Virus record (IMG/VR): IMGVR_UViG_3300020582_000005
DNA length: 64,000 nucleotides
From: a virus
Lineage: Duplodnaviria > Heunggongvirae > Uroviricota > Caudoviricetes
Direction: 5' to 3' (one strand)
The notes under the pieces are model-generated. The model was not told where the DNA came from. It worked only from the letters and a program-made list of their open reading frames with translations, and ran no database searches. The position numbers and the translations under genes were made by a program. Positions within the stretch are counted from its first letter, which is position 1, and each line of letters begins with the position of its first letter. This document shows, in pieces, positions 4,139 through 61,326 of the stretch.

Positions 4139-4366
4139 ATGTCGGTCACGGATCACGAATTCGAAATAAGAGAATTACATGCCAGAGAAGAGTGTGAAAC
4201 TCTTGGCGTTATTGGGAAGACAGGGAAGCCGGATCATTGGTTTAACGCTTCTTTACGAGAATGCTTTGCTCGTGATAAGAAGTCTGGGGCTATTAATTGG
4301 CAGCAGACTCTAGAGCTTCGAAAGAAGTTAGTTGCTGGATATGAAAAGAGGAAAGAGCGTGGCTAG
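4139..4366 (+). CDS. hypothetical protein
   Basis: An internal ATG at 4139 (MSVTDHEF) avoids overlap with the previous gene. The 4055 start given by the ORF track overlaps that gene. Confidence 0.4.
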   Translation: MSVTDHEFEIRELHAREECETLGVIGKTGKPDHWFNASLRECFARDKKSGAINWQQTLELRKKLVAGYEKRKERG

Positions 4367-5138
4367 CCCATTTACAAATATCGCTATCGGTATAAAAACA
4401 TTTTTGAGAGACGAGCATTTGGAAGTGGCTGTTAAAGGTATTCTTCATAATATGCCCGGTGCTCAAATTATCGTAGCTGACGATGGAAGAATGACTCCAG
4501 CGAAATCTTTATTTTATGATAATCTTAGATATTGGGGACATTATGTTATGTATATGCCTTATGACTCTGGTTTTGGAGCTAAAAGTAATGTCATATCGCA
4601 AGCAAATGAACATCCTTATCTCCTGATAGGATCAGATGATTTTGATTTTACATATGAAGCAGCGGAAGGTGTATTGAAGTTGCAAAGTATTCTGGATAAC
4701 AATCCAGAAATAGCCGTTGCTAGTGGCCGAGTTAGAAATCGTCCTTATGAGTTTCTTCTAGAGGAAAAGGATGGAGTCATCACGGAACACCCTCTTGATG
4801 TTGATATTAATGGTCGTGGGCAGTCGTTCATAGAGTGTGACCTGACTGTCAATTATTCTCTGATTAGAAAGAAAGTTTTCAATTTTGTGCGATGGGATGA
4901 TGATGTCAAGATCGGTGGTGGTGAGCACGGGGCGTGGTTCTTAGATGTTAAGAGGGCGGGATTTAAAGTGGCCTATGTACCAGGAGTAAATATTAATGAA
5001 CAAAATCGTCCGAGTTCTCAAGAGTATCGGAAATATCGTGCTAGAGCACATTCTCCGAAGCGTCCTTGTTTTGAGCGAAGAGGTATCAAGCGTTACATCC
5101 TTGGAAATGGACAGGTAGATTACGATGCCATCAGTTAA
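4332..5138 (+). CDS. glycosyltransferase family 2-like
   Basis: The N-terminal IAIGIKTF...ADDG and GSDDFDF (DxD) follow the GT2 pattern. The start could be 4332 or 4341. Confidence 0.6.
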   Translation: MLDMKRGKSVASPFTNIAIGIKTFLRDEHLEVAVKGILHNMPGAQIIVADDGRMTPAKSLFYDNLRYWGHYVMYMPYDSGFGAKSNVISQANEHPYLLIGSDDFDFTYEAAEGVLKLQSILDNNPEIAVASGRVRNRPYEFLLEEKDGVITEHPLDVDINGRGQSFIECDLTVNYSLIRKKVFNFVRWDDDVKIGGGEHGAWFLDVKRAGFKVAYVPGVNINEQNRPSSQEYRKYRARAHSPKRPCFERRGIKRYILGNGQVDYDAIS

Positions 5139-5535
5139 ATCTTATCAGAATCGCAAGAAAGAAATTGAAAGTCTTCGACATCTTCTTCAACAGTACGAAG
5201 TGTATTTGAAAAATAAGGACATGAGAATATGCCAACTAGAGGGACAGTTAAATCACTATGCTGGTGTGTTAGCCGATAATTTAGCTTTTCAAATTCAACC
5301 GCCTTTTATTGTAAATACAAAAGAAGCGGAGTTGCTTAAGAAGGAAATTGAAGCATTGAAAGTGACGTTGCGTCTTTATCGAGAGTACATCTTGAAGACT
5401 TATCACGACGCAGATTTCATAGATTTGATGGAAATTCCTAGTTGTTTGAAACCGTTTGACGCTATTAAATACGCCGGGGAGAAAAGTTTGTGGCTTTACA
5501 ATGGAGAAAATAATGGACCTGATAATAAGTCATAA
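5125..5535 (+). CDS. hypothetical coiled-coil protein
   Basis: 136 aa with heptad-like charged repeats. Confidence 0.45.
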   Translation: MPSVKSYQNRKKEIESLRHLLQQYEVYLKNKDMRICQLEGQLNHYAGVLADNLAFQIQPPFIVNTKEAELLKKEIEALKVTLRLYREYILKTYHDADFIDLMEIPSCLKPFDAIKYAGEKSLWLYNGENNGPDNKS

Positions 5536-6496
5536 ATCGTGTCCTGACGGCTTCTGTGCTTCGTTCATAGCACATAAGCGATATCCCGAGGCTGAAATTC
5601 TCCCGTTGAATCACGGTGATCCTCTGCCTATTGAACAGGTTAGAGGGAAAGATGTCATCGTTTTAGATTTTTCTTGGAAACGTCGAGAAGATAATGAAGC
5701 TGTCGCTGCTTCAGCCAAGTCAATCTGGATTTTAGACCATCATAAAACATCTCTTCAAGCTTGCCAGGGTTTACCATATGCTACGTTTGACATGAGTCGA
5801 TCTGGTGCCGGGTTGACGTGGGATTATCTTTTCGGCAAAGATTCTCCACGAGCACAGGACGCAGCAAATTGCTCTGTTGTGGATATGTATAAATACAATA
5901 AAATTCTTGAAGAGATGAGACGCCCTTGGTACGTTAATTATATCGAGGATTACGATCTGTGGAATCATAAATTAATAAGCACTGAGGAAGTTAACGCCTT
6001 TTTGCATTCGTTAAATTTCGACTTCGCTGAGTGGGAAGAACTCGATAATATACACTGGCTTGATGCAGCAGAGCGTGGTAAGTATGTGGTTCGTAACAAT
6101 GAACGTCGAGTTAAATTAGCACTACAGCAAGCTTTTGAAGGACGGTTAGTAATTAACCCAGGAGGATTCGATCCAGAAGCTTTTTCGTGCGATTACTCGG
6201 TGAAAATAGTCAATACTCAATATACGGATGCTTCTGAAGTCGGAGCAGCATTAGTTGAATCGGGCGCAGATATCGGCTTGACTTGGTTTGAACGTGGCGA
6301 TGGAATGATTCAGTTCAGTCTTCGATCTTTAAAAGGCGGTCCTGTAGATGTTTCTAAAGTAGCTGCACTTATCGCACCTGGAGTCGGTGGTGGGCATCAG
6401 TCGGCGTCCGGAGCACCATTACCAATTTATCAGGGGCGAGCATTGATCGACTCTATTTTGAATCGAAAGTGTGGATTGGGAGTAAAGTTTCAGTGA
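5501..6496 (+). CDS. DHH/DHHA1-family phosphoesterase (NrnA/RecJ-like)
   Basis: Contains DGD...ILDHHKT (DHH motif) and GVGGGHQSASGA (GGGH motif). Start is placed at MEKIMDL, though 5513 is also possible. The ORF-track start at 5456 overlaps the upstream gene. Confidence 0.75.
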   Translation: MEKIMDLIISHKSCPDGFCASFIAHKRYPEAEILPLNHGDPLPIEQVRGKDVIVLDFSWKRREDNEAVAASAKSIWILDHHKTSLQACQGLPYATFDMSRSGAGLTWDYLFGKDSPRAQDAANCSVVDMYKYNKILEEMRRPWYVNYIEDYDLWNHKLISTEEVNAFLHSLNFDFAEWEELDNIHWLDAAERGKYVVRNNERRVKLALQQAFEGRLVINPGGFDPEAFSCDYSVKIVNTQYTDASEVGAALVESGADIGLTWFERGDGMIQFSLRSLKGGPVDVSKVAALIAPGVGGGHQSASGAPLPIYQGRALIDSILNRKCGLGVKFQ

Positions 6497-7173
6497 GAAC
6501 GTTGATAGCAGTAAAGTCGTGTCACGATGATCTAGATAAGGGTTGTCACGATACTATTAAACAAACTTGGGGTAAAAATGTTCAATGTGATTTACGTTTC
6601 TTCGTGGGTCAGAAAGTTGGAACACCTTGGAGATGGGGCGGTCTTTTAGATACTATTTATTTAGACGTGAAAGACGATTATAATAGTTTGCCTCAAAAAA
6701 CAAAACGAATCCTTCAGTGGTCTTTTGGGAGGGATTACGATTTTATATTTCTTTGCGATGTAGACACATTCTTGATCCCGTATAAATTATTTCAAACTGA
6801 TTTTCAGAAATTTGATTATTCGGGACGATTTGGTTCTTCGCCCAAGATAGGGTCTACTTTTCACTTTAAGGATGGAAGAGGAATTCATCACTTTCATTGC
6901 CACCCGTGGGCGTCAGGGGGATTTGGGTATGCGCTGTCCCGTAAAGCAGCTGAAATAGTTATTCGTACAGAATCTGGAATGTGGGCCGAGGACATGATGG
7001 TCGGCAATTGTCTTGGCCCTGAGATTCAGTCTGGTAATGTGACGGCGAGTGATTTAATGAGATTCGAGAATGAAGCAAGCTGGCATTATCCGGCGCATAA
7101 ACTTGGGTGGACTCGGGAACGAATGAAACTGTGGATGTGTGAAATGTATAAGGAGCATTTCTTTGATAGTTAG
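6469..7173 (+). CDS. Fringe-like (GT31-like DxD) glycosyltransferase, paralog 1
   Basis: Shares D..KIKQTWGK, YDFIFLCDVDTF.IP, FDYSGR, GGFGYALSRKAAE and WHY motifs with the ORFs at 12646, 13308 and 15678. Confidence 0.55.
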   Translation: MWIGSKVSVRTLIAVKSCHDDLDKGCHDTIKQTWGKNVQCDLRFFVGQKVGTPWRWGGLLDTIYLDVKDDYNSLPQKTKRILQWSFGRDYDFIFLCDVDTFLIPYKLFQTDFQKFDYSGRFGSSPKIGSTFHFKDGRGIHHFHCHPWASGGFGYALSRKAAEIVIRTESGMWAEDMMVGNCLGPEIQSGNVTASDLMRFENEASWHYPAHKLGWTRERMKLWMCEMYKEHFFDS

Positions 7174-7918
7174 ATTAACTGGTGGCTTAGGAAATCAGTT
7201 GTTCATGTACGCATTCGGAAGATCAGTTGCAGCGATAGCTAATGAACCTTTGAAGTTTCATTGGTGTCGTTCAACGTGGGATTATGCTCTTGAACCCTTT
7301 CATCTTCCAATAATACTAGGTTCTCCTGATGGAGCGGAGCTTACATATGAAGAGTCAGGATTCTTTTACGATTCAAAAATAGCTAGTGGAATAAGGGTAT
7401 CTTCCAGACCTCGTCCATGTGAAAGAATTTATTTTCGTGGTTATTGGCAGAGCGAAAAATATTTCAATGTAGATTTGATTAGAAAAGATTTCGATTGGTG
7501 GGTTAACTCTCCGCTGAGAGTACAGTTTAGAAACAAAGCCTTCATTCACGTCCGTCGTGGTGATTATCTAAATCGAGGTACTAAGGAATTCCATGGATCG
7601 CTTCCATTGGAATATTATCAAGCGGCAGTTGCCTATATTAAAGAGCGTGTTCCTGATATAACTTTTGAAGTCTTTACAGATGATCCCGACATGAAAGAGT
7701 TCATGGGTTATCCTGTAGTTTCAACTGGAAATCAGCATCTAGATTTACACACGATGACTAAGTATTCTCATGCAATCTTGGCTAACTCTACATTTTCGTG
7801 GTTCGGGGCATGGTTAGGCGAGCATTCAAGTCAAATTGTTATAGCTCCAAAGAAATGGTTTCAAGATGAAACAATTAATACTTCTGATTTAGTACCTGAT
7901 CGCTGGATAAGGATTTAA
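7139..7918 (+). CDS. GT11 alpha-1,2-fucosyltransferase-like
   Basis: N-terminal IVRLTGGLGNQLFMYAF and the signature FIHVRRGDYL of GT11 FutC/WbsJ-type enzymes. Confidence 0.8.
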   Translation: MKCIRSISLIVRLTGGLGNQLFMYAFGRSVAAIANEPLKFHWCRSTWDYALEPFHLPIILGSPDGAELTYEESGFFYDSKIASGIRVSSRPRPCERIYFRGYWQSEKYFNVDLIRKDFDWWVNSPLRVQFRNKAFIHVRRGDYLNRGTKEFHGSLPLEYYQAAVAYIKERVPDITFEVFTDDPDMKEFMGYPVVSTGNQHLDLHTMTKYSHAILANSTFSWFGAWLGEHSSQIVIAPKKWFQDETINTSDLVPDRWIRI

Positions 7919-7921
7919 ATT

Positions 7922-8374
7922 ATGTCGTCTCAAACTTATAGAGAAACACACCGAGAAATCAATAAAATTAAACAAAGGGAGTGGAGAGCGGCTAATCGAG
8001 AGCACCATCGTGCATATTCACGAAAATACAGTAAAGAACATCCTGAACGACGTAAAGCACAATAAAAGAAGTTACCAGCTAGATACGCTCGTTTGAAGGC
8101 TCACGCTAAAAGTTATGAATTGATTTGTTCAATTTCTTTTGAGCAATACAAATCATTAATAGAGAATCCCTGTTATTATTGCGGAGAAAAATTAGCACTA
8201 TTGCAAACCGGCAGTGGATTAGATCGTATTAATTCTTCCGAAGGTTATACACTTGAAAATCTTCGTGCCTGTTGTATGATATGTAATCAAGCTAAAAATG
8301 TACGTTCAGAAAATGAATTTAGAGAATGGGTAAATAAAATTTACCACTATTGGATTAGCAAGGTGTCTTTATGA
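7922..8374 (+). pseudogene. HNH endonuclease interrupted by an in-frame TAA (N-part 7922-8065, HNH part 8066-8374)
   Basis: ATG at 7922 encodes MSSQTYRETHREINKIKQREWRAANREHHRAYSRKYSKEHPERRKAQ. A TAA follows at 8063-8065, and the same frame continues KKLPARYARLKAHAKSYEL...CYYCGEKLAL...LDRINSSEGYTLENLRACCMICNQAKN (HNH). The downstream part has no in-frame ATG before the HNH motif. Confidence 0.55.
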
Positions 8375-9333
8375 AACGAGCTTTAATTACCGGGGTTTCC
8401 GGACAAACAGGATCGTATTTAGCGGAGTCGCTTCTCGAAAAGGGATATGAAGTTCATGGAATTATACGTCGATCTAGTTCATTAAATACGGGTCGCATAG
8501 ACCATATTTTTAATGATCTACATCTTCATTATGGAGATTTGACCGACGCCAATTCTATTCGTCATATTGTTCAGGAGTCGAAACCAGACGAAGTGTATAA
8601 TCTTGGCGCACAATCACATGTTAAAGTTTCATTTGAGTTGCCGGTTTATACTGCCGAAGCTACCGGTCTAGGTGCTTTGAATATGTTAGAAGCTACTACT
8701 CAATATGGTCACGCTAAATTTTATCAAGCCTCATCAAGTGAGTTATTCGGAAAAGTTGTCGAAACTCCTCAGAAAGAAACTACTCCGTTCTGGCCACGTA
8801 GTCCTTACGGCATCGCAAAACAATTCGCATATTGGAGTACGGTGAACTATCGTGAAGCTTATAATATGTTTGCTTGTAATGGGATTCTTTTTAATCATGA
8901 GTCGCCTCGTAGAGGTGATACGTTTGTCACACAGAAAATAGTCAAAGCAGCTGTTCGGATCACTCAAGGTAAGCAGGACAAACTTTTCCTAGGTAATCTG
9001 GATGCCCGAAGGGATTGGGGCTACGCCAAGGATTATGTTGAGGCTATGTGGCTTATGCTTCAACAAGATAAACCAGATGATTACGTGATCGCCACGGGCG
9101 AAACCCACTCCATAAAAGAGTTCTTGACAGAAGCCTTCAGCTATGTTAATCTAGACTGGACTAAGTATGTAGAGATCGATTCTAAGTATTATCGCCCCGC
9201 TGAAGTGGATTTGTTATTGGGAGACGCTTCAAAGGCTAGACGACAGTTAGGTTGGGAGCCACGAGTGAAGTTTAAAGAGTTGGTTAAAATTATGATGGAA
9301 GCGGAGTTAAATGCTCGATCTTTTAATTCGTGA
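8371..9333 (+). CDS. gmd: GDP-mannose 4,6-dehydratase
   Basis: Near end-to-end similarity to bacterial Gmd: [74 protein letters not shown]. Confidence 0.95.
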
Positions 9334-10309
9334 CGCCGAAGAAACTTTAAACATAGTTGACTACAGTCCACTAGATGGTGCTCGTGTCTTTATTTCTGGG
9401 GCCACAGGTTTGATCGGTATGCACTTGATGACAATTTTGTACGTTCTTAAACAGCGAGGGTATAAGATAGAAGCTTTTGGACAGTATCATAACGAGCCTG
9501 CGTGGTATACTAACCAACTTGCAAAACGGGCTGGATTTAATCTCTATCACGATTCAATGCGATTTGTATCAGCCGATATTATTATTCATGCGGCTGGATA
9601 CGGTCAACCTGTCATTTTTATGCAAAATCCAGCAGATACAATCCATGTAAATACAACTATCACGGAACGATTATTAAAATCTCTCGCTCCTGGCGGTCGC
9701 TTCCTTTTTGTAAGTTCGAATGAAGTTTATCATGGTTTACAGAAAGAATTCGCTACGGAAGAAGATATCGGGAGCACTACTCCTTACCATCCACGGGCAG
9801 GTTATGTCGAAGGAAAACGAAGCGGTGAAGCCATAACTTATGCCTATCGTAAAAATGGAGTAAATGCCTCTTCTGCCCGGTTAAATTTGACTTATGGCCC
9901 AGGCGTTCGTAAGGATGATAAACGTGCTTTGAGCCAATTTATTGATCAGGCGATCACGAAGAATCATATTGAGATGAAGTTTTCAGGCAAGGAAATGAGA
10001 ACTTGTTGTTACGCCAAAGATGTCGCAACGATGCTCTGGAAGGTTGTTCTGCACGGCACTAAACCCGTCTATAACGTTGGTGAGCGCTCTACCACTAGTA
10101 TTGCTGAATTAGCTACGATTGTTGCCCGATTAACTAATTCAACTATTCACATTCCGGAAGAGGATAAAGAATTACCCGGTTCCCACGCCTTACCTAGAAT
10201 GGATATCGGTTTAATGGAAGCGGATATGGGAAAGATGAACTATACCACTTTGGAAGAAGGTCTGAAGAGAACAATTGAGTGGCAACGGAGATTATATGGA
10301 TCATTTTAA
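9311..10309 (+). CDS. NAD(P)-dependent extended-SDR epimerase/reductase (Fcl/ColC/Rmd-like)
   Basis: [15 protein letters not shown] (Rossmann fold) and a Y-x-x-x-K motif (YVEGK). It sits directly after gmd. The exact activity cannot be told from sequence alone. Confidence 0.6.
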
Positions 10310-10838
10310 GATTGAAGAGGAAAAGTTTAATGGACGTGTCAAGTTGATTCGTTCCACTTGCTTTGAAGATGAGCGTGGATATTTCAACATCACTTATCTC
10401 GATAATGAAATGCAAGAAATGGGACTTCCACGATTTGTTCGTGATCTTCACTCTCGGTCAATGAAAAATGTTATACGAGGTTTACACTTTCAATTTACGC
10501 CCCCAATGGCAAAATTAATGCGGGTCACTCAAGGAAGAATTTTTATGGTAGCAGTCGATGTTCACAAACAGTCCGCTACATTTTTACAGTACTATAGTCT
10601 TATTATGCAGAAGGGAGACAAACTTTTACTTTGGGGTGATTCTTATATCGCTCGTGGATTTTGTGCTTTACAGGAATCTGAAGTACAGTACAAATGTTCT
10701 AGTCATTTCGACAAAGCATCTGATGACGCAATTCTATGGAACGATCCTATGATAGGTATCGATTGGCCAGTTAAAGACCCCACTTTATCAGATAGGGATA
10801 GGCACGCCATGACTGCGAAGGAGTTTTTCCATCTATGA
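10275..10838 (+). CDS. RmlC-like cupin sugar-nucleotide 3,5-epimerase
   Basis: FEDERGYF, GLHFQ, VTQGRIFMVAVDV and WNDPMIGIDWP resemble dTDP-4-dehydrorhamnose 3,5-epimerase family enzymes. Confidence 0.7.
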   Translation: MSGNGDYMDHFKIEEEKFNGRVKLIRSTCFEDERGYFNITYLDNEMQEMGLPRFVRDLHSRSMKNVIRGLHFQFTPPMAKLMRVTQGRIFMVAVDVHKQSATFLQYYSLIMQKGDKLLLWGDSYIARGFCALQESEVQYKCSSHFDKASDDAILWNDPMIGIDWPVKDPTLSDRDRHAMTAKEFFHL

Positions 10839-11992
10839 GATCGATAACTTTAGGACATTTGAATATCAGTGAAAACGGAAAACGTTATGTTAATAATGCG
10901 TTGAATGCTAATCGTTTAAGTCGTGGTAAATTTACCGAGTCGTTTGAATTTTCTTTCGCTGAACTACATCAAGTAAAACATGCGTTATTTTGTAATAGCG
11001 GTACATCTGCGCTACAAATCGCTTTGGCGGCATTGAAAGAAGTTTACGGATATAAAGATGGGGACGAAGTCATTGTTCCAGCAACTACGTTTATCGCTAC
11101 GTCTAATATCGTCCTACAAAATAATCTTAAACCCGTGTTCGTTGATGTCAGTCCTGAAACTTATAATATCAATCCATTCAAAATTTCAAAAGCTATTACT
11201 GATAGAACACGTTGTATCATTCCTGTTCATTTGTTTGGCTTGCCAGCGGATATGCACAACATAATGATTACTGCGAAGGGTTACGGATTGCAGGTACTTG
11301 AAGATTCGTGTGAAACTATGTTTGCTACACAAAATGGTAAGTCAGTTGGAAGTTTTGGAGATTTAGCTTGTTTCTCAACTTATGTTGCTCATTTAATTGT
11401 CGGTGGAGTTGGTGGTATTGTCACTACATCGAATTCTAAATTATACGACATATGTCGCAGTTTGATGAATCATGGTCGTAGTACAGATTATATTTCAATA
11501 GATGATGATGATAACCTCCCGACGGACATTATGGATCGACGTTACGAATTTGAAAGAGTAGGCTATTCTTATAGAGCCACAGAGCTAGAAGCCGCCCTCG
11601 CTTTAGCAGAATTAGAACAACGTGAAAACAACATTATAGCACGGCGACGAAATGCCCACGAATTGACTACACTGTTGAAGGATGTTAATTGGTTGCAGTT
11701 ACCGAAAATTCCCGAAAAGATGACGCATAGTTTTATGATGTATCCTATAGTCGTTAAACCTTTTACAAAGAAACGAAATGATTTTCTTATTTATTTAGAA
11801 CGAAACGGAATTGAGACGAGATATATGTTTCCTCTGTTGAGTCAACCGATTTATCAGAAATTATTTCCACGAGAAGAGTCTAAACACTATAACGCTGTGG
11901 GATTAGCAGAACGGGGCTTTTTTATAGGAATTCACCAAGGTCTAAATGGTGATGACATGCAGTATATCGCTAAAGTGATCAAGGATTATTAA
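10835..11992 (+). CDS. DegT/DnrJ/EryC1-family PLP enzyme with His in place of the Schiff-base Lys (ColD/E1-like putative sugar 3-dehydratase)
   Basis: Aminotransferase class-V-like fold. The segment CFSTYVAHLIVGGVGG aligns by eye to the SF-x4-K-x4-GEGG motif (ArnB FSFHAIKNITCAEGG), with H at the Lys position. Confidence 0.7.
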   Translation: MRSITLGHLNISENGKRYVNNALNANRLSRGKFTESFEFSFAELHQVKHALFCNSGTSALQIALAALKEVYGYKDGDEVIVPATTFIATSNIVLQNNLKPVFVDVSPETYNINPFKISKAITDRTRCIIPVHLFGLPADMHNIMITAKGYGLQVLEDSCETMFATQNGKSVGSFGDLACFSTYVAHLIVGGVGGIVTTSNSKLYDICRSLMNHGRSTDYISIDDDDNLPTDIMDRRYEFERVGYSYRATELEAALALAELEQRENNIIARRRNAHELTTLLKDVNWLQLPKIPEKMTHSFMMYPIVVKPFTKKRNDFLIYLERNGIETRYMFPLLSQPIYQKLFPREESKHYNAVGLAERGFFIGIHQGLNGDDMQYIAKVIKDY

Positions 11993-11998
11993 AGCAAA

Positions 11999-12649
11999 AT
12001 GACGATTCAAGAAATAAGACGTGATGTAATCATTAGTATTTTAAAGGATGTAAAGTTTCCGGTTATCGTGGAAGCCGGAGCCTGTCACGGTGAAGATAGC
12101 CAAATGTTAACTTATGCAGCTACTTATCCCGAGAATATTATCCACGTAATGATCGAACCCGATCCCGAGAACTGTGAAGTTATTCGACGAACCGCACTAG
12201 ACATTCCAGGCAGACGCTTGATTGAAGGCGCAGTAGCCAAATATTCTGGTTTTAGAAAGTTTAATCGTGCAATTGAAATAAAAACTGGTTATCGATTTTG
12301 TGGATCGTTATTAGAACCACGGAAAGATGCATTTCGGCAGATGAACTTCGATGAGGTGATTGAAGTTCAATGCTACACTCTCGATGAGATTTTTCAGCAA
12401 CAGGGCTTAACTCACGTCGATTTACTGTGGGCCGACGTTCAAGGCGGGGAAAGAGGAATGCTTGAAGGCGGCGAAGCGGCCCTTTCTAAAACTCGTTACT
12501 TGTTTATGGAAGTCGTTAAAGAAGAACAATATGTAGGAGAAGCTCTTAAAGAAGAATTAGTTTCCTTATTAGAACAAAGAGGCTGGTCAATCGTAATCGA
12601 TTTCGACACTATTGGCGATGTTCTGATGAAAAATGAGAGGTATCAATGA
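11999..12649 (+). CDS. FkbM-family methyltransferase
   Basis: IVEAGACHGEDS is a glycine-rich SAM motif. The protein is the size of FkbM-domain proteins and lies in the sugar locus. Confidence 0.5.
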   Translation: MTIQEIRRDVIISILKDVKFPVIVEAGACHGEDSQMLTYAATYPENIIHVMIEPDPENCEVIRRTALDIPGRRLIEGAVAKYSGFRKFNRAIEIKTGYRFCGSLLEPRKDAFRQMNFDEVIEVQCYTLDEIFQQQGLTHVDLLWADVQGGERGMLEGGEAALSKTRYLFMEVVKEEQYVGEALKEELVSLLEQRGWSIVIDFDTIGDVLMKNERYQ

Positions 12650-13350
12650 GAGTTTTAATAGCGATTATTTCTTTTCAGGGAGACGCTGAAAACGGGAATC
12701 ACGATAAGATTCGGCAAACTTGGGGGAAAGACGTTGCTATAACCGGTGCCGATCTACGCTTTTTCCTTGGGCGACGTGATAAGTTTTATAAGCCAAAAGC
12801 TGATGAAACATCGATTCCTTGGCAAGAGGACGGAACTAGGAAGTGTCAGCACCCTTATTGGACAGCCGTAGCAGGCTGCTGCGTCGAATACTGGCAAGTC
12901 CTTTATAGAGGAATTCTTGATTGGTCGCTACGTAACGGATACGATTACACGTTTCTCGCTGAAAATGACACTTTCTTGATACCACGGAAGTTGATGAAAA
13001 GTGGTTTTGAAAACTACGATTTTTCTGGCTGGATGATGTATACCCACTCAGATAAGCCTGATCAATATTACGTTGAACCCGGTGCTGGATATTTTCTTTC
13101 ACGACGAGCCTCTGAAGCTATTCTGAAAACAACTCCGGATCATTTGCATTTTGAAAATCTTGCTTGCGACGTTTTAAAGCCGATGCAGGAACGTGGGGAA
13201 ATGACAATTAAGTCTCTAGATCATTTTTGGAACGAGACTTCGTGGCACTATAGAGCGCAAGGAATTATAGACCCGGTGATTAGAGACGGCTATCCGGTAG
13301 GCTCTCGTTGGATGTTCGATATGTATCGGCAGCACGGAGCAGATCAATGA
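12646..13350 (+). CDS. Fringe-like glycosyltransferase, paralog 2
   Basis: HDKIRQTWGK, YDYTFLAENDTFLIP, YDFSGW, AGYFLSRRASE, WHY. Confidence 0.55.
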   Translation: MRVLIAIISFQGDAENGNHDKIRQTWGKDVAITGADLRFFLGRRDKFYKPKADETSIPWQEDGTRKCQHPYWTAVAGCCVEYWQVLYRGILDWSLRNGYDYTFLAENDTFLIPRKLMKSGFENYDFSGWMMYTHSDKPDQYYVEPGAGYFLSRRASEAILKTTPDHLHFENLACDVLKPMQERGEMTIKSLDHFWNETSWHYRAQGIIDPVIRDGYPVGSRWMFDMYRQHGADQ

Positions 13351-14048
13351 GAATTCTAGTGGCTGTTTATTCTCATTCCGGAGATTCCGTCAATGGAAAC
13401 CATCAAAAAATTCGAAATACCTGGGGTAAACATGTAGCGCCTTGGGATGTTCGCTTTATGATTGGGCACCGAGACGCCCCAGGCTGGCATATCCAGAACG
13501 ATGAAGTGCTTTTACCTGAACGAGCCAATCGTGCTTGCGGAAATGACTGGTTACTTTGGAATCTTTATTATCAAGAATTAACTATTGAGATGCTTCGGTG
13601 GTCTTTAGAACAAGGTTACGATTTCACGTTTCTTTGCTGCAATGACACGTTCATTATCCCTAGTAAACTGAAAGCGACAGACTTCGAAAAATATGATTAC
13701 TCGGGGATTTTTTATCCTCTTAGTCAGTTAGGAGAAACTTTTTACGAGCCTTTCTATAAGCGGCAGGCTTATGTAGCAGCGGACGCAGGCACGGGCTGGT
13801 TTATGAGTCGTAAAGCATCGGAAATAGTTCTTAACAGTACTCAGGGTGAGTATTTCGGCACTAGTGATCAATATACAGGACAAGTTTTGGGACCGTATAT
13901 TAAGTCTGGAACAATTACTGCAAAGAATCTAGATAATTTTCATCACGTAGCCGCTTGGCATTACCGGGAAGAAGAGAATGCTTTATCAACTGGATATTCT
14001 ATCGGTTCCACTTGGATGCATCAAATGTATCAGAAATACGGGGGATAG
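13308..14048 (+). CDS. Fringe-like glycosyltransferase, paralog 3
   Basis: HQKIRNTWGK, YDFTFLCCNDTFIIP, YDYSG, GWFMSRKASE, WHY. Confidence 0.55.
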   Translation: MDVRYVSAARSRSMRILVAVYSHSGDSVNGNHQKIRNTWGKHVAPWDVRFMIGHRDAPGWHIQNDEVLLPERANRACGNDWLLWNLYYQELTIEMLRWSLEQGYDFTFLCCNDTFIIPSKLKATDFEKYDYSGIFYPLSQLGETFYEPFYKRQAYVAADAGTGWFMSRKASEIVLNSTQGEYFGTSDQYTGQVLGPYIKSGTITAKNLDNFHHVAAWHYREEENALSTGYSIGSTWMHQMYQKYGG

Positions 14049-14909
14049 ATGGAAAATAAAACTTACAAACCTGTCATCTACGCTAACCACGAGTTGAATG
14101 TTCCTGAATTGAATTGGAGAGCATCGATTTCGGTAGACTACTTCAATTTTGAAGATCGAACGCCGTACAAAATATTTTGGCAGTTAGAGCCTGAAGACAT
14201 CACTCCAACGGAAAAGAAACTCATCAAGAATCACCAATTCTACGATCTCATTTTGACTTACAATAATACTGTACTAAGTGAATGCTCTAATGCTGTTTTC
14301 TTTTTGAACAATGGAGTTTGGACCCACGAAAGTGATGTATCACAGAAAAAATTTGCCGTTTCCTTTTTGACCAGTGCAAAGACGATGTGTCCTGGGCATA
14401 AATTCCGTGTCATGACTTTTAAGAAATTACAACAGTATTTAGAGGGAAGTAATTCTGCCCTACCTTGTCCTTTAACGATGCACATGTCCCCTCCTTATCT
14501 ACCCGACAAGCGGAGTATGCTAATACCATTTCAATATGCAATTTCAATTCAAAATTCTCAGATGCATAACTACTTCTCGGAAATTCTTTTAGATTGTTTT
14601 GCTACTAAGACGATTCCTATTTTCTGGGGAAGCGCCAATGTCGGAGAATTTTTTAATCCAGACGGCATTTTGTCTTTTGGTAATCCTTACGATCCTAGAG
14701 CTAGGACAACCTTGAATGATGTTTTGTTGTCCTTGACACCTGATTTTTATCATTCACCTAAGGTCCAGGCAGCGATAGAAGAAAATTATCTGAAGTCTCT
14801 TACATACTCAGATAGGATAGGCCGTTTGGTTAACGCTATCACAGATTCGTGGACTCCGAAGATAACTAAAATTCATAGTGGAGAACCAAATGTCGCTCCC
14901 AACAGTTAG
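14049..14909 (+). CDS. GT10 alpha-1,3/4-fucosyltransferase-like
   Basis: The C-terminal block YQYAISIQNSQMHNYFSEILLDCFATKTIPIFWGSANVGEFFNP matches the GT10 motif (Y.F.L.FENS...YVTEK......IP.YWGS....FNP). Confidence 0.7.
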   Translation: MENKTYKPVIYANHELNVPELNWRASISVDYFNFEDRTPYKIFWQLEPEDITPTEKKLIKNHQFYDLILTYNNTVLSECSNAVFFLNNGVWTHESDVSQKKFAVSFLTSAKTMCPGHKFRVMTFKKLQQYLEGSNSALPCPLTMHMSPPYLPDKRSMLIPFQYAISIQNSQMHNYFSEILLDCFATKTIPIFWGSANVGEFFNPDGILSFGNPYDPRARTTLNDVLLSLTPDFYHSPKVQAAIEENYLKSLTYSDRIGRLVNAITDSWTPKITKIHSGEPNVAPNS

Positions 14910-15681
14910 CCTAGTTTGTCCAACATATAATCGTCAACAATTTCTTCCTGTGGCTATACGTAGTTTTTTACAGCAGACATATCGACCTCTTGAACTGATT
15001 TTTGTTGATGATAGTGGTGATTTATCATGGACTCAAAATTTAGATATTCCATTTGTTTATGTCCGTCTGAGTAAACGTACACCGACAGGCACAAAAAGAA
15101 ACATGGGTGCCGATTTAGCCACAGGTGATATAATCGCTAATTGGGATGATGACGACTGGAGTATGGCTCATAGAATTCAAACTCAAGTCATGCACTTAGA
15201 AAATTCTCAGAAAGCCGTCACAGGATACAACGTGACAATATGTTATGATGAAAAGACACGGGGTTTTTATAGGAATCAAGGCGGTCCTCCTTATTTCGCA
15301 TCCGGAACGTCCCAGATGTACTGGAAAAGTTGGTGGCGTGAGCACCCGTATCCAGATGTAACTTTTGGCGAGGATAGCGTTTTCTCTAGAACAGCACGGC
15401 TTAAGGATCAATTAGCTATTTTTAGTCCAGGGAAAATGCTTGTCGCTAGAAAGCATCAAGCTAACACCGATAAAGTACCGCTTAAGTGGCTTAAAAACGT
15501 AGATTCGAGGGAAATTCATACCGACTTTTTCCGGGCGCTGGAAAGTCCGTCGTTTTCAGATACTTACTTGAAAGAAAAACACGTTTGTTATCAAGAGTGT
15601 CACGAGGAACTTGAACGAGATTTCGCTGGACAAATGATAGACTATCGTGTAAACTGGACTCCGGAGATTAAAACCCGATGA
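14878..15681 (+). CDS. glycosyltransferase family 2
   Basis: LSLVCPTYNRQQFLPVAIRSFLQQTY...LIFVDDSGD and a later DDDD motif. Confidence 0.8.
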   Translation: MENQMSLPTVSLVCPTYNRQQFLPVAIRSFLQQTYRPLELIFVDDSGDLSWTQNLDIPFVYVRLSKRTPTGTKRNMGADLATGDIIANWDDDDWSMAHRIQTQVMHLENSQKAVTGYNVTICYDEKTRGFYRNQGGPPYFASGTSQMYWKSWWREHPYPDVTFGEDSVFSRTARLKDQLAIFSPGKMLVARKHQANTDKVPLKWLKNVDSREIHTDFFRALESPSFSDTYLKEKHVCYQECHEELERDFAGQMIDYRVNWTPEIKTR

Positions 15682-16337
15682 AGATATTGGCTGCTGTTGA
15701 GTCTTGTCAGGCAAATCGACATTTGCATCAAGCTATGCTCGATACGTGGCTTGGTACTTTATCCACTATGGATATAGACTGTCGTTTCTTTATCGGCGGT
15801 TTGAGTGAGCCTGAAAATCACCTTGAGGTATGGGTTCCTTGTTTAGATACATATGATAATCTAGCCGTTAAAACGAGAGGAATTTGTAGATGGGCTGCTA
15901 CCAATAATTATGATTTTCTTTTCAAGTGTGATACTGATACCGTTGTTAATCCGAAGCGTCTTTTAGAAAGTGGATTCGAACAATATGATTATATGGGCGC
16001 TGAAAATTGTGATAATCTTCCGCCTAGTTTAAATGCGGCTTTTCCTGAATGCGTCGGAGGAAAAATTTCGTTTGCGAGTGGCGGTGCAGGCTATTGGTTA
16101 AGTCGAGATGCTATGTCCTACGTAGCGAATGGACCACTCGCATCATTTCCAGAAGATGTATATGTTTCTGGGGTATTAGGCGATAACTACATTTATCCGG
16201 TATGGCACAAGGGGTACCGCTGGCGACCAGGATCGAAGATTAAAGGCGCAACAACTTTCCATTTATCTAGTGCATTGCAGGTGAAATACCGCCCTGAGTT
16301 GATGTACGAATATTATAAGAAAATACTTGACAAATAA
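15678..16337 (+). CDS. Fringe-like glycosyltransferase, paralog 4
   Basis: YDFLFKCDTDTVVNP, YDYMG and GGAGYWLSRDA are shared with the other three paralogs. Confidence 0.55.
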   Translation: MKILAAVESCQANRHLHQAMLDTWLGTLSTMDIDCRFFIGGLSEPENHLEVWVPCLDTYDNLAVKTRGICRWAATNNYDFLFKCDTDTVVNPKRLLESGFEQYDYMGAENCDNLPPSLNAAFPECVGGKISFASGGAGYWLSRDAMSYVANGPLASFPEDVYVSGVLGDNYIYPVWHKGYRWRPGSKIKGATTFHLSSALQVKYRPELMYEYYKKILDK

Positions 16338-24061: not shown

Positions 24062-24529
24062 ATGGCGGATTCAAAAATTGCAATAGCAAAAACCCTGATT
24101 AATGAGGGCGGGTATGTCGACAACCCAAACGATTCGGGTGGCCCGACAAAATACGGTATCACTCAGAAGGATATGCCTGGAGTGAACATTCAGGATATAA
24201 CTTCAGATCAGGCAACGGCGTATTATCAGGAGCACTATTGGAAGAGTCTCTATTCTGAAATTAGCTCCCAACTAGTGACCGATAAAATTTTTGATATGGG
24301 CGTCCTGTTCGGCGTCGGCGAAGCTATCAAACTACTTCAAATTCTCCTAGGCGTCCAGGTGGACTGCGACTTCGGTCCCCATACCCTAGCCTGCTTGAAT
24401 CAAATTGATCCTGCAAATTTGTTGACAACGTACAAGACGGCTCTAGTTACATATGCTATCGGTATCGCTAACGATAAGCCACAGGATCGGGTGTTCCTGA
24501 ACGGGTGGATACGTCGAGTGAATAGTTAA
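24062..24529 (+). CDS. endolysin, GH108 N-acetylmuramidase with C-terminal peptidoglycan-binding domain
   Basis: The N-terminus AKTLINEGGYVDNPNDSGGPTKYGIT is the GH108 signature, with the C-terminal region typical of PG_binding_3. Confidence 0.8.
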   Translation: MADSKIAIAKTLINEGGYVDNPNDSGGPTKYGITQKDMPGVNIQDITSDQATAYYQEHYWKSLYSEISSQLVTDKIFDMGVLFGVGEAIKLLQILLGVQVDCDFGPHTLACLNQIDPANLLTTYKTALVTYAIGIANDKPQDRVFLNGWIRRVNS

Positions 24530-25891: not shown

Positions 25892-26425
25892 ATGCGAGAC
25901 TGGTTAAAGGCACTTGGAATCACAGTAGCTTCAATGTCGCCACTAGGATTAATTTTCCTGATGCTTTTACCGGTACCGACACATACTATGGCGGTTAATC
26001 CTAGTCCCTACGATGTTCCAGCTTATCGCCAAGCCTTCTTTGACGCTAGCAGAATTTATGGCAAAGCTGGCTGCGGCGATATAACTCTTGCTGAAATGAC
26101 CGCTGAGAATTCACTCAGAACTGGCGTACCAGCTAACATAATCGCTGCCATCATCAGCGTCGAATCGTCCTGCAATCCGCTGGCGATCAGCAATCGTGGC
26201 GCAGTTGGTTTGACTCAAGTGAACGTTAAAGTGCAATCTGAAAAATTTGAACAATTTAGTGCAATCAATCTTTTTAATCCGAAAGAGAACATGCGAGTCG
26301 GCACTCAAATTATGTCTGAAATGATCAAACAATATGGACTACGCTCTGGTATAAGTCACTACGACGGCGTAGGACCAGAAGCTGACGCCTATGTTCTAAA
26401 GGTGTTGGCACTGGCTGGCAAATGA
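25892..26425 (+). CDS. SLT-domain lytic transglycosylase with N-terminal signal-anchor
   Basis: The N-terminal hydrophobic LGITVASMSPLGLIFLMLL is followed by the SLT core IISVESSCNPLAISNRGAVGLTQV. The RBS GGAGAAACC lies upstream. Confidence 0.75.
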   Translation: MRDWLKALGITVASMSPLGLIFLMLLPVPTHTMAVNPSPYDVPAYRQAFFDASRIYGKAGCGDITLAEMTAENSLRTGVPANIIAAIISVESSCNPLAISNRGAVGLTQVNVKVQSEKFEQFSAINLFNPKENMRVGTQIMSEMIKQYGLRSGISHYDGVGPEADAYVLKVLALAGK

Positions 26426-26552
26426 ACGATCTTATCAAACGCAATTCTGAACTAGAACAAGAGAATATTCAACTAAAGAAACGTGCCGAAAAAGCAGAAC
26501 AAACACTACTAGAAATTCAAGCAGCGTGGAAAACTATCACCAGAATTATGAG

Positions 26553-27518
26553 ATGCTATTCATGAGTTTACCTGGGGCTACAGACGTTGGTGTAGTGATC
26601 GGTCGATTTCAAGTGCCGAATCTTCACGAAGGTCATCGGAGTCTACTCGATTTAGTCGCAACTAGACATAAACGGGTTTTAATTCTACTAGGATCGCCTG
26701 CGTGGAAGGGTGGTAAGAGTGATCCTCTTGACTACCATACTCGGGCATTGATGTTTCATCAAGAGTATCCAGACTTTCTAGTTGCACCAGTGACAGATAC
26801 GCAATCAAATGATCAGTGGTCAGAGCAAGTAGATAAAATTATCCAGAGTGTATTTTCACTTTGTCAAGTGACACTTTATGGAGCACGAGACAGTTTCATC
26901 GATCAATATAATGGGCGATACAAAACAAGCGAAATTATACAGTCTGTTGAATCTTCTGGCACAACTGTTCGAGAATATACAGCAGCCATGCCTCAGGAAA
27001 AAGAAAGTTTCCGTGCCGGTGCAATCTATGGAATTCTAAACAATCCAAGTCTGATAGTGCCATGCGTTGACGGCGCTGTCTTAAGAAAGAGCGAGGATGA
27101 AATTCGAGTTGTATTGATCAGGAAACCAGATGAAAAACTTCTCAAATTTCCTGGTGGGAAAGTGGAATACGATGACAAATCCTACGAATCCGCCGTCAAT
27201 CGAGAAGTCCGAGAAGAAACCGGACTTGAAGTCGGAACCCCGATCTACGTCACGTCCAGTTGTAGTCTGCCTGATTGGAGAGCTATCGGCGCTGGAATTG
27301 CTGTACATACTTCTCTCTTTGCGCTCCGATTTATATATGGCGCTCCCAAAGGTCGAGACGACGCAGCTGAAGCCGGATGGTTCAACCTCTTTGAAATAAA
27401 AGAGGCGCAGATGGAAGATTGCCATAAAAAGTTGTTGACAACTTTGAAAGCTTGGGTTAGTATAAATTCAGGAGACTTCTTCAATGACGAATTTACTGCT
27501 GCAGACCGACTCATATAA
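26553..27518 (+). CDS. nadM: bifunctional NMN adenylyltransferase / Nudix hydrolase (NadM-Nudix type)
   Basis: The N-terminus VGVVIGRFQVPNLHEGH carries the (H/T)xGH nucleotidyltransferase motif. The C-terminal Nudix box is GGKVEYDDKSYESAVNREVREETGLE. The start is uncertain (26526, 26553 or 26562). Confidence 0.8.
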   Translation: MLFMSLPGATDVGVVIGRFQVPNLHEGHRSLLDLVATRHKRVLILLGSPAWKGGKSDPLDYHTRALMFHQEYPDFLVAPVTDTQSNDQWSEQVDKIIQSVFSLCQVTLYGARDSFIDQYNGRYKTSEIIQSVESSGTTVREYTAAMPQEKESFRAGAIYGILNNPSLIVPCVDGAVLRKSEDEIRVVLIRKPDEKLLKFPGGKVEYDDKSYESAVNREVREETGLEVGTPIYVTSSCSLPDWRAIGAGIAVHTSLFALRFIYGAPKGRDDAAEAGWFNLFEIKEAQMEDCHKKLLTTLKAWVSINSGDFFNDEFTAADRLI

Positions 27519-31490: not shown

Positions 31491-31595
31491 CACAGATTAC
31501 ATGATTTTAGGTATATTTAGTTTACTGTTAATTGCAATCGGCTCCATATGTTATGCTGTAATTTGTTTAATTCTAGACAAATAAAAAGAGGAGAT

Positions 31596-60697: not shown

Positions 60698-61326
60698 TAG
60701 CTCACCATATCTTCCGAATGTTTAATCTCTTTCGTTAAAGCAATAGCTTTATATCCAGATGGGTCTTGATCATCTTTATAAACGCCTACAACTCCACCCG
60801 GCGCTACTTTTACTTTATTATGATCACCATGAAGTAATTGAGACAACTCGTGGACGATTGAACTATGAACAACTGAAATAGAAGGATATTTACTAGCTTC
60901 ACCCTTGTGAATAGCCATCATAATCTTAGGATCGGTTCTCTTTCTAAAATCATTCAGCCGTTCACCCCGAGGAATTTTCTCATCAGGATTATCTTGATAA
61001 TATCGAATCGTCGCTAAATTCTCTTTATCTTTTGGCTTACCTGATAGCTCACCGACATTAAAAGCATCGAAATCCTTAACCATCTTAGGCTTTATCTTAG
61101 ACTTCGATTTTTCCAAAATCGGTTCTATAGTTTGCAGCGTTCGCTTTTTACTACTATGATAAGCTGCGCTAAACTTTCGACTCTTGAAAAAATTACCTAA
61201 CTCTTCAGCCTGTTCTTTTCCTTTATCATCCAACGATACATCAACAGGGCCACGAAACTTCCCCGCATCATTTAATTCGGTACTACCGTGCCGAACAAAA
61301 TATGCTACGGGTTTCAACATATTCAT
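60697..61326 (-). CDS. histidine phosphatase superfamily (PGAM-like) protein
   Basis: AYFVRHGSTELN contains the RHG catalytic motif. Confidence 0.7.
   Translation of the reverse strand: MNMLKPVAYFVRHGSTELNDAGKFRGPVDVSLDDKGKEQAEELGNFFKSRKFSAAYHSSKKRTLQTIEPILEKSKSKIKPKMVKDFDAFNVGELSGKPKDKENLATIRYYQDNPDEKIPRGERLNDFRKRTDPKIMMAIHKGEASKYPSISVVHSSIVHELSQLLHGDHNKVKVAPGGVVGVYKDDQDPSGYKAIALTKEIKHSEDMVS

Follow-up and report, generated by a model that had tools for sequence, protein, structure and literature searches.

A phage glycan island with GT11 and GT10-like transferases beside a predicted GDP-3,6-dideoxyhexose pathway

Among described systems, the Lewis-antigen system of Helicobacter pylori unites the same two transferase families as the locus described here, with FutA/FutB from GT10 and FutC from GT11. 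To our knowledge, all characterised GT10 enzymes are fucosyltransferases. Colitose systems (GMD, ColD, ColC, WbgN) are found in E. coli O55 and in Vibrio cholerae O139, whose repeat unit contains two colitoses in a Lewis-b-like arrangement, and WbgN is a member of GT11. The WbgN of E. coli O55 is an alpha1,2-colitosyltransferase with GDP-colitose as its natural donor, while GDP-fucose is tolerated too (PMC12723683). The cell-wall/LPS-type clusters of cyanophages (Synechococcus phages S-T4, S-SCSM1, S-SSM7 and others) likewise contain GMD or related SDRs, methyltransferases and many glycosyltransferases. In the cultured cyanophage S-T4 a genuine member of PF00852 (44.1 bits) and two genes of PF01531 lie inside 9 kb, and S-SCSM1 has GMD, Fcl and several fucosyltransferases. 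Such phage clusters have often been annotated, mainly in cyanophages, and we know of no biochemical study of them.

The phage and its glycan island

The window analysed here comprises 64 kb of the uncultured phage IMGVR_UViG_3300020582_000005 (Caudoviricetes). The window is identified as phage by its minus-strand genes at 53-60 kb, which encode terminase, portal and major head protein. The phage also encodes an integrase, and its terminase shares no more than 25% identity with the records of the phage collection that was searched. Co-oriented sugar-building genes on the plus strand form an island of ~12 kb (4332-16337) with 15 proteins (Table 1), which lies in the early/replication-strand block and apart from the structural genes. 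None of the 15 proteins has a transmembrane segment, so that the island is entirely soluble. Since no polytopic membrane protein is encoded in the 64 kb, an initiating phosphoglycosyltransferase, flippase, polymerase and ligase are likewise absent from it.

The gene order of the window is shared with the related loci L002, L003, L005 and L006. Orthologues of the GT-A candidate at the left end occur in L009, L006 and L011, the DHHA1 gene holds the same position in L005 and L006, and the HNH-like ORF is missing from its position in L002 and L005. Paralogues 2 and 3 of the GT31/Fringe-like proteins gave no match in the Pfam search and were assigned by their similarity to the other copies. The FkbM-family enzyme probably serves sugar O-methylation.

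Table 1. Genes of the glycan island, with window coordinates and the evidence for each assignment
Feature	Coordinates	Strand	Evidence
Weak GT-A (GT2/TIGR04440-like) glycosyltransferase candidate, island left end	4332..5138	+	TIGR04440 E 2.7e-6 (below cut-off), PF13641 E 0.09
DHH/DHHA1 phosphoesterase-like, conserved left neighbour of island	5456..6496	+	PF02272, PF01368 E ~1e-3, below cut-off
GT31/Fringe-like GT-A glycosyltransferase, paralogue 1	6469..7173	+	PF01762 29.8 bits vs cut-off 23; paralogue alignment; DxD = DVD
GT11 glycosyltransferase (alpha1,2-fucosyl/colitosyl-transferase family)	7163..7918	+	PF01531 55.1 bits vs 23.9
Small HNH-like ORF, between GT11 and GMD genes	8093..8374	+	PF14279/PF01844 E 0.02-0.03, sub-threshold
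GDP-mannose 4,6-dehydratase (GMD)	8371..9333	+	TIGR01472 514 bits vs 415; PF16363 E 1e-139
Extended SDR, UXS-like (SDR2)	9311..10309	+	PF01370 E 9e-33
RmlC-like NDP-4-keto-6-deoxyhexose epimerase	10275..10838	+	PF00908 E 2e-45; TIGR01221 155.0 vs cut-off 155.75
DegT-family protein, PMP-dependent sugar 3-dehydratase type (ColD/E1-like), His186	10835..11992	+	PF01041 E 6e-92
FkbM-family methyltransferase	11999..12649	+	PF05050 60.6 bits, TIGR01444 51.4 bits, both above cut-off
GT31/Fringe-like paralogue 2	12646..13350	+	BLASTP vs 6469-7173 E 4e-30, vs 13308-14048 E 4e-49; DxD position = END
GT31/Fringe-like paralogue 3	13308..14048	+	BLASTP vs 6469-7173 E 6e-41; DxD position = CND
Short GT10-like GT-B glycosyltransferase, motif variant IQNSQMHNYFSEI (Gln168, Ile179)	14049..14909	+	Profile homology and predicted fold
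GT2 glycosyltransferase	14878..15681	+	PF00535 76.6 bits vs 23.3
GT31/Fringe-like paralogue 4	15678..16337	+	PF01762 26.0 bits vs 23; paralogue alignment; DxD = DTD

The two fucosyltransferase-like enzymes

By its sequence, ORF 7163-7918 clearly encodes a GT11 enzyme. The PF01531 match (E 9.4e-15) exceeds the curated cut-off, and the reading frame, which is open from a GTG at 7139, contains an N-terminal GGLGNQ at aa 15, FIHVRRGDYL at aa 135-144 (with the donor-binding HVRRGDY from aa 137) and a C-terminal STFSW at aa 217. The reaction expected of this family is an inverting alpha1,2 transfer, in which a beta-galactoside receives L-fucose (or colitose) from a GDP-sugar. The start chosen by the gene caller is a TTG at 7163, resulting in a protein of 251 aa that is 100% identical to P0089; PF01531 is present in all 120 homologues listed, of 7827 found. 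The GT10-like protein has a length of 286 aa, with QNS at aa 168, IPIFWGS at aa 189 and FNP at aa 202. An earlier note on this DNA had quoted motif strings of both families; all of them are present in the ORFs named, and chance does not explain them (E 9e-15 for PF01531, E 5.7e-20 for the GT10 profile). The note had also let both assignments depend on family HMM thresholds, and here the outcome is split: GT11 passes, whereas PF00852 reaches only 18.2 bits (E 0.002) on the GT10-like protein and stays below its curated cut-off of 23.9.

Other evidence argues for GT10 membership. The window ORF as a single sequence matches the H. pylori alpha1,3-FucT (2nzw) with E 5e-7. With the family profile, matches were obtained to 2nzw (E 5.7e-20), 5zoi (2.4e-19), 9s6a (5e-13), 7yro (2e-12) and FUT9 (2e-11); only GT10 fucosyltransferase structures were significant, and the next matches had E 0.5. 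In a confident predicted model the protein adopts a GT-B fold (two-Rossmann), nearest to FUT9 and H. pylori FucT. The GT10 kinship suggested here is therefore rescued only by profile and predicted fold and not by the Pfam score, and the assignment of the earlier note stands as homology, with two signature residues replaced. The full alpha1,3-FucT signature, (F/I)-E-N-x5-Y-x-T/S-E-K, is not present in the window protein, which reads I-Q168-N-SQMHN-Y-F-S-E-I179: Asn, Tyr and Glu are kept, Gln168 stands for Glu and Ile179 for Lys (Hp K250). Thus QNS itself departs from the canonical ENS/ENT of GT10. Retained motif residues are Glu47, Lys100, Arg120, Asn169, Tyr175, Glu178 and Asp182. Glu47 is invariant in 56 sequences and is a candidate for the catalytic base (Hp E95, FUT9 E137) only by its position after a beta-strand, as the N-domain gave no HMMER alignment to HpFucT. 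The canonical signature was found in 78/86 related loci and the variant in 4/86.

Co-occurrence of the two families is frequent in viruses. A GT11 gene lies within 10 kb of the GT10-like gene in 65 of 80 IMG/VR loci, on the same strand in 64 of those 65 and with a median gap of 1.3 kb. The earlier note built on the presence of both families in one phage, which is not special in view of these numbers and of S-T4, which has both. The pair is common in environmental phages, and the locus is a useful variant and no surprise.

The deoxyhexose pathway and its probable product

The GMD gene, an equivalog-level match, is located between the GT11 and GT10-like genes and is followed by SDR2, the RmlC-like epimerase and the DegT protein; both transferase families thus lie in the same cluster and orientation as a deoxyhexose pathway that starts from GDP-mannose, in agreement with the earlier note. 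The DegT protein carries His186 in the alignment column that holds the Schiff-base Lys in perosamine synthase and His220 in E1 dehydrase; the H220K mutant entry of E1 has Lys there. Across 24 members of the family this His does not vary. Perosamine synthase and E1 score higher with the dehydratase than ColD does. However, the region aligned to the E1-type [2Fe-2S] cysteine loop (CYCAPGCDNTC) reads ...IDDDD... and contains no cysteines, so that the protein should be mechanistically ColD-like and not E1-like. Viral GT10-like genes have 42 ORFs of the DegT family within 10 kb, of which 38 are His-type, and 11 viral GT10-like loci hold the canonical trio of GMD, ColD-like and Fcl/ColC-like genes.

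No Fcl-like ORF (GDP-fucose synthase/ColC homologue) was detected in the 64-kb window at E<=1e-5. SDR2 as a candidate for Fcl was rejected (35.6 bits with the Fcl model vs 500). Among solved structures it matches UDP-glucuronate decarboxylases best (E 5e-28), and it is nearer to UDP-xylose synthases than to any known colitose or fucose enzyme, so that the final sugar may be colitose or a stereoisomer; we infer a role as NDP-4-keto-sugar 4-reductase. The relatives of the RmlC-like protein include GDP-heptose epimerases. In the related loci L010 and L012-L014 the SDR2 and RmlC pair is replaced by an Fcl/ColC-like gene, which in L010 occupies the position of the pair between GMD and DegT; this fits an equivalent 5-epimerase/4-reductase role. 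Across ~7 related, non-independent loci the variant GT10-like gene varies in step with the SDR2 and RmlC genes, and DegT, GMD and GT11 follow a different relative.

Together, GMD, the His-type DegT protein, the RmlC-like epimerase and the SDR predict a GDP-3,6-dideoxyhexose such as colitose, an identity deduced from a single-residue signature and from gene context. Host GDP-mannose would pass through GMD, the ColD-like 3-dehydratase, the RmlC-like 5-epimerase and the SDR 4-reductase, ending as GDP-3,6-dideoxy-L-hexose (colitose or a stereoisomer) instead of GDP-fucose. The GT2 and GT31/Fringe-like enzymes would build a backbone, on which GT11 and the divergent short GT10-family enzyme would act as capping deoxyhexosyltransferases. 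Judged from the sequence, these two fucosyltransferase-like enzymes most likely attach the rarer 3,6-dideoxy sugar and not fucose, and without the donor-contacting Lys the GT10-like protein could use another donor entirely. Since the pathway would yield a dideoxy sugar and no GDP-fucose, we expect a colitose-type counterpart of an H/Lewis-like epitope, which the FkbM enzyme may O-methylate. Its carrier would be either virion proteins or, in infected cells or lysogens, the envelope polysaccharide of the host; the transferase that takes the dideoxy sugar, the linkages and the acceptor are presumed from the same context. We consider this proposal of a conserved soluble phage island somewhat probable as a whole. 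The earlier note had read the pair as makers of fucosylated Lewis antigens, for which the pathway gives no support, while its hedge towards a related 6-deoxyhexose and GDP-colitose donors points in the right direction.

Under plain fucosylation the donor of both transferases would be GDP-L-fucose, either taken from the host or formed by the RmlC-like 3,5-epimerase and the 4-reductase SDR2 out of the GMD product; true Lewis/H-like epitopes would result, and the 3-dehydratase product would be left to other island transferases. GT10 and GT11 are fucosyltransferase families, all solved structures matched by the GT10-like profile are fucosyltransferases, WbgN-type enzymes tolerate GDP-fucose and S-SCSM1 combines GMD, Fcl and fucosyltransferases. 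RmlC and SDR2 could also act directly on the GMD product and chemically stand in for Fcl, giving GDP-L-fucose or another 6-deoxyhexose. Nevertheless, with Fcl absent from the window, an invariant His-type dehydratase inside the same operon-like block, the same His type prevailing near viral GT10-like genes and the donor-contacting Lys of GT10 replaced, this route appears rather unlikely. The loss of Glu168 and Lys179, both inside the signature motif, could alternatively have turned the protein of this clade into a non-catalytic scaffold or sugar-binding partner. The Lys corresponds to K250 of H. pylori FucT, a conserved catalytic residue contacting the GDP-fucose donor (PMC11468063), and the Pfam score falls below the cut-off only in the clade of the window, while PF00852 matches 51 of the 56 family members aligned at E<=0.01 (best E 2.6e-13). 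However, selection on the gene is strongly purifying (pN 0.15-0.19, pS saturated), all close relatives examined (62-95% identity) share Gln168 and Ile179, the remaining motif residues are kept, and SEI arose independently in P0085, which makes a loss of transferase function highly improbable.

The carrier of the glycan has to be weighed separately. Glycosylation of the phage particle is reported for mycobacteriophages, and virion glycans likewise for chloroviruses. A decoration of capsid or tail proteins instead of the host envelope would be in line with the soluble island proteins, the missing membrane-assembly genes and the sugar methyltransferase. We regard it as somewhat unlikely, since the integrase agrees with a lysogenic conversion of glycans on the host surface, the island is placed away from the structural genes and undecaprenyl-linked intermediates of the host are also within reach of soluble transferases at the cytoplasmic face. 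The colitose-type proposal can be extended to a module widespread among environmental phages, of short GT10-like enzyme, GT11 enzyme and His-type 3-dehydratase pathway, that makes H/Lewis mimics, and in which the GT10 of this lineage, without the canonical donor-phosphate Lys, co-evolved with the swapped epimerase/reductase towards a new donor specificity, possibly for a virion-displayed glycan; this extension seems quite improbable at present. If the colitose-type proposal is true, the label fucosyltransferase is wrong about the sugar for many phage genes, and GT10 gains its first non-fucose donor. The Gln168/Ile179 variant with its co-inherited epimerase/reductase pair would be a natural experiment in donor-specificity rewiring, and the island would offer a concrete way to obtain rare GDP-3,6-dideoxy sugars together with transferases that use them. 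As it stands, the locus is a solid, fairly ordinary example of a common phage module.

Comparison with known systems

The C-terminal donor-binding motif of the H. pylori GT10 enzyme aligns residue for residue with the phage protein, in which the equivalents of R195, N240, Y246 and E249 are kept. In contrast to the H. pylori enzyme, the phage protein is ~90 residues shorter, lacks the heptad-repeat tail, carries Gln and Ile at the positions of E239 and K250, respectively, and does not reach the Pfam cut-off. The phage has no GDP-fucose synthase, and the adjoining pathway is of the 3-deoxygenating type. With the colitose systems of E. coli O55 and V. cholerae O139 it shares GMD, a His-type PMP-dependent 3-dehydratase and a fucosyltransferase-like transferase, whereas ColC (the Fcl homologue) is apparently replaced by separate RmlC-like and UXS-like SDR enzymes. 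Unlike those systems the island is phage-borne, has no lipid-carrier or export genes, and its dehydratase is not closest to ColD. Compared with the cyanophage clusters, protein identity is only ~30% and the window phage is unrelated to T4-like cyanophages, from which it is set apart by its integrase, a ColD-type pathway without Fcl, four Fringe-like paralogues and the Gln/Ile variant of GT10.

Identity of the two transferases

The interval flagged in the earlier note runs from the start of the GT11 ORF to the end of the GT10-like ORF, both on the plus strand, and all the motifs it had quoted were found: FIHVRRGDYL at aa 135-144 of the former, and QNS at 168, IPIFWGS at 189 and FNP at 202 of the latter. 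The GT11 family call held: PF01531 scores 55.1 bits where 23.9 would suffice, and all three family motifs (GGLGNQ, HVRRGDY, STFSW) are present. Translation is called from a TTG at 7163, giving 251 aa, to which the homologous protein P0089 is 100% identical. The database contains >7800 homologues, several bearing the name alpha-1,2-fucosyltransferase, and PF01531 occurs in all 120 among the matches listed; a sequence search of solved structures with the GT11 protein gave nothing at E<=10. Judged by these profile and motif matches, the GT11 membership of ORF 7163-7918 is secure, as an assignment of the family and not of the sugar transferred.

For the GT10-like protein the PF00852 score (18.2 bits, E 0.002) lies below the cut-off of 23.9, an outcome that the earlier note had named as a refutation, yet the protein is a true homologue of GT10 enzymes. 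By itself it matches the Helicobacter pylori alpha1,3-FucT (2nzw) with E 5e-7 across the signature block, and a profile of 56 relatives matched only GT10 fucosyltransferases among solved structures (2nzw at 5.7e-20, 5zoi, Arabidopsis FucTA, mango FUT13 and human FUT9); E is already 0.5 for the match that follows. PF00852 was detected at E<=0.01 in 51 of the 56 members of this family, which represents a compact form of ~280 aa.

In a residue-by-residue alignment to 2nzw, Lys100, Arg120, Asn169, Tyr175 and Glu178 are kept (K179, R195, N240, Y246 and E249 of H. pylori FucT), while Gln168 replaces E239 and Ile179 replaces K250. Y246, E249 and K250 have been described as conserved catalytic residues in contact with GDP-fucose (PMC11468063). 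The Gln/Ile state is common to all close relatives examined (62-95% identity), and relatives at <=56% identity read EN...[TS]EK; among 86 related loci, 78 show the canonical signature and four the variant, all in the lineage of the window. Since synonymous sites are saturated (>0.9) between the variant-clade genes compared, against 0.15-0.19 non-synonymous differences per site, the variant is not a product of decay. A non-catalytic GT10-like protein, to which the two replacements might be taken to point, is on this ground very improbable. When the N-domain was compared with H. pylori FucT by HMMER (a sequence one residue off the PDB numbering), the C-domain alone aligned; we propose the invariant Glu47 as catalytic base, which would be equivalent to Hp E95.

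Coordinates of the features in the window, with % identity of island proteins to those of related viral loci carrying a GT10-like gene
Feature	Position	Strand	L009/L002	L008/L003/L005
Fringe-like (GT31-type)	6469-7173	+	60-80 (joint with 15678)	30-49 (joint with 15678)
GT11	7139-7918	+	74-89	36-43
HNH-like ORF	8093-8374
GMD (4,6-dehydratase of GDP-mannose)	8371-9333	+	77-79	68-77
SDR2 (extended SDR)	9311-10309	+	48-49	74-82
RmlC-like	10275-10838	+	44	68-79
DegT	10835-11992	+	79-85	55-66
FkbM	11999-12649	+
Fringe-like	12646-13350	+	45-48	74-87
Fringe-like	13308-14048	+	38-40	66-73 (L003 and L005 only)
GT10-like	14049-14909	+	55-57	72-78
GT2	14878-15681	+	59-87	49-53
Fringe-like	15678-16337	+	60-80 (joint with 6469)	30-49 (joint with 6469)
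GH108 endolysin with PG_binding_3 domain	24062-24529
SLT transglycosylase	25892-26425
Nudix hydrolase	26526-27518
Nicotinamide phosphoribosyltransferase	27484-28920
Tyrosine integrase	30558-31490
SPFH/Band-7 protein	31548-32483
Nine large structural-region proteins	34438-55580	-
Trypsin-like peptidase	61323-62273

Sugar pathway and mosaic history of the island

The GMD gene between the two transferases reaches 514 bits with TIGR01472 (cut-off 415), a match at equivalog level. The DegT protein, automatically named 'perosamine synthetase' in source databases, has His186 at the position of the Schiff-base Lys of aminotransferases. This residue aligns with the Lys of Caulobacter perosamine synthase, whose Lys-to-Ala mutant entry reads Ala there, and with His220 of the E1 dehydrase, whose H220K mutant entry reads Lys there; it is invariant in 24 relatives. 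A His for this Lys, as in ColD and E1, is the signature of PMP-dependent 3-deoxygenation, and by alignment and analogy the DegT protein carries it. The iron-sulfur cysteine loop of E1 is missing from the protein in the same alignment. The RmlC-like epimerase (PF00908, E 2e-45) has GDP-heptose epimerases among its relatives, and SDR2 is nearest to UDP-xylose synthases. No Fcl/ColC-like gene was found anywhere in the 64-kb window. In the related loci L010 and L012-L014 such a gene stands instead of SDR2 and RmlC, its place in L010 being between GMD and DegT; this speaks for the functional equivalence of the two arrangements. The route would thus lead from GDP-mannose to GDP-4-keto-6-deoxymannose and on to GDP-4-keto-3,6-dideoxymannose, whose C5 epimerisation and subsequent C4 reduction would yield GDP-L-colitose or a stereoisomer.

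The island is a mosaic with two histories. Its parts at 9311-10838 and 12646-14909 resemble L008/L003/L005 (66-87%), while those at 6469-9333, 10835-11992 and 14878-16337 resemble L009/L002 (59-89%). SDR2 and RmlC were therefore co-inherited with two of the Fringe-like paralogues (12646 and 13308) and the GT10-like gene despite DegT and FkbM in between. This is suggestive of a GT10-like enzyme whose donor sugar gets its stereochemistry from SDR2 and RmlC, and on that reading the Gln168/Ile179 variant would reflect a change of donor. The presence of FkbM or of a thiamine-diphosphate enzyme was also considered as its cause, but neither follows the variant consistently. The HNH-like ORF between GT11 and GMD (Pfam sub-threshold) has no counterpart at this position in L002 and L005 and could be a homing-endonuclease insertion.

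The proposed glycan and its possible targets

The island further encodes a GT2, a weak GT2-like protein, an FkbM methyltransferase and four Fringe/GT31-like paralogues of 26-38% mutual identity, two of which exceed the PF01762 cut-off. The metal-binding DxD motif reads DVD and DTD in two of them, END in 12646-13350 and CND in 13308-14048; from these motifs, the latter two may be inactive or work in a different mode. In L172/L008 the 13308-14048 orthologue is split over two frames. Hydrophobic segments of the membrane-span type are absent from all island proteins and no polytopic membrane protein is encoded in the whole window, so an initiating transferase, a flippase, a polymerase and a ligase are not supplied by the phage.

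We lean slightly towards a mechanism in which GT11 and the GT10-like enzyme add a 3,6-dideoxy-L-hexose, derived from GDP-mannose, as a cap to a backbone built by the GT2 and GT31-like enzymes. The product would correspond to an H/Lewis-like epitope, of which it would be a colitose-type analogue, and may be O-methylated. In V. cholerae O139 two colitoses are displayed in a Lewis-b-like arrangement, and WbgN is a GT11 enzyme. In E. coli O55 WbgN acts as an alpha1,2-colitosyltransferase with GDP-colitose as natural donor, GDP-fucose being tolerated (PMC12723683). Such tolerance would also accommodate true fucosylation with GDP-fucose, made by the host or by the RmlC/SDR pair, which we regard as unlikely. 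Both families and their neighbourhood with a GDP-deoxyhexose pathway stand as the earlier note described them, while fucose as the sugar is probably wrong, given the lack of Fcl and the His-type 3-dehydratase.

Glycosylation of DNA is unlikely, since no hydroxymethylase-type gene occurs among the ORFs scanned, and we know of no DNA-glycosylation precedent for GT2, GT31, GT11 or GT10. The presence of a tyrosine integrase (PF00589 at 38.7 bits) points to a temperate phage. In L008/L172, the related IMG/VR record 3300030042_000123 (120,343 bp) shares, at the GT10-like gene, an identical sequence with the 186,275-bp contig Ga0302326_10000172; the record appears to be a 120-kb provirus excised from this 186-kb contig, and the ~66 kb outside it are possibly host DNA. 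Integrase and provirus relative favour lysogenic conversion of host surface glycans. Virion glycosylation would be just as consistent with an enzyme set that is soluble throughout.

Terminase, portal and major head protein genes on the minus strand at 53-60 kb identify the window as phage. No known phage is usable as a guide: against 50,697 phage records, a near-identity DNA search with 7000-15000 gave no match, and the terminase nowhere exceeds 25% identity. None of the nine large proteins of the structural region, the longest of 1255 aa, has a Pfam match, and five of them gave weak matches at most against PHROGs; by these searches the virion module stands very far from characterised phages. 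The nicotinamide phosphoribosyltransferase (phrog_448, E 1e-155) follows the Nudix hydrolase, and both look like a phage NAD+ salvage pair. The SPFH/Band-7 protein has hydrophobic segments at its N-terminus, and the trypsin-like peptidase lies near the terminase. A Logan contig from run SRR7095402 carries genes identical to those of the window. No tRNAs were found in the window, and Rfam gave no match over its whole length, including the wcaG RNA annotated in the cyanophage S-SCSM1 cluster.

Occurrence in other phages

The gene order of the window (DHH, Fringe-like, GT11, GMD, SDR, RmlC, DegT, Fringe-like paralogue(s), GT10-like, GT2, Fringe-like) recurs in four more metagenomic phage loci, L002, L003, L005 and L006. 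Inside the sugar pathway of three of these lies a thiamine-diphosphate E1 alpha/beta-like pair (PF00676 and PF02779; L002 3815-5440, L003 6088-7223, L006 4805-5993), which is not found in the window. Combined with the 3-dehydratase, the pair suggests that the 3,6-dideoxy sugar of those phages is C-branched (yersiniose-like). A scan of IMG/VR found a GT10-like relative on at least 575 viral contigs. Among the best 80 of these, GT11 lies within 10 kb in 65 (32 of 36 loci of >=15 kb), on the same strand in 64 of the 65 and with a median gap of 1.3 kb; the DegT-family ORFs of the fetched loci are His-type in 38 of 42 cases, and eleven loci carry the canonical trio of GMD, ColD-like and Fcl/ColC-like genes, counts that describe a pattern and not a statistical test because the loci are not phylogenetically independent.

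In L024, L026, L029, L030, L039, L042, L046, L065, L067, L074 and L077, GT10-like loci as well, the dehydratase reads CSFYPAHH, a motif resembling E1 of the CDP-3,6-dideoxyhexose route. All except L042 and L067 have GT11 within 10 kb, a distance over which none of the eleven showed a GMD. They may place a CDP-based dideoxy sugar beside GDP-type transferases. Genome contigs yielded no close prophage, with a best match of 43% identity on a 3.6-kb MAG contig and others scattered over phyla at ~30%; metagenomes added only one further long locus of the lineage, L171, the sequence of L172 being that of L008.

Two useful leads emerge, the association with a His-type dehydratase and the co-inherited GT10 variant. 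To our knowledge, the recurrent tie of the transferase pair to 3-deoxygenating pathways has not been described. The pair itself is not new in phages, and its supposed rarity was mistaken, since 65 of 80 viral loci combine both families and in the cultured cyanophage S-T4 two PF01531 genes and one of PF00852 (44.1 bits) lie within 9 kb. Cyanophage S-SCSM1 likewise combines GMD and Fcl with several fucosyltransferases.
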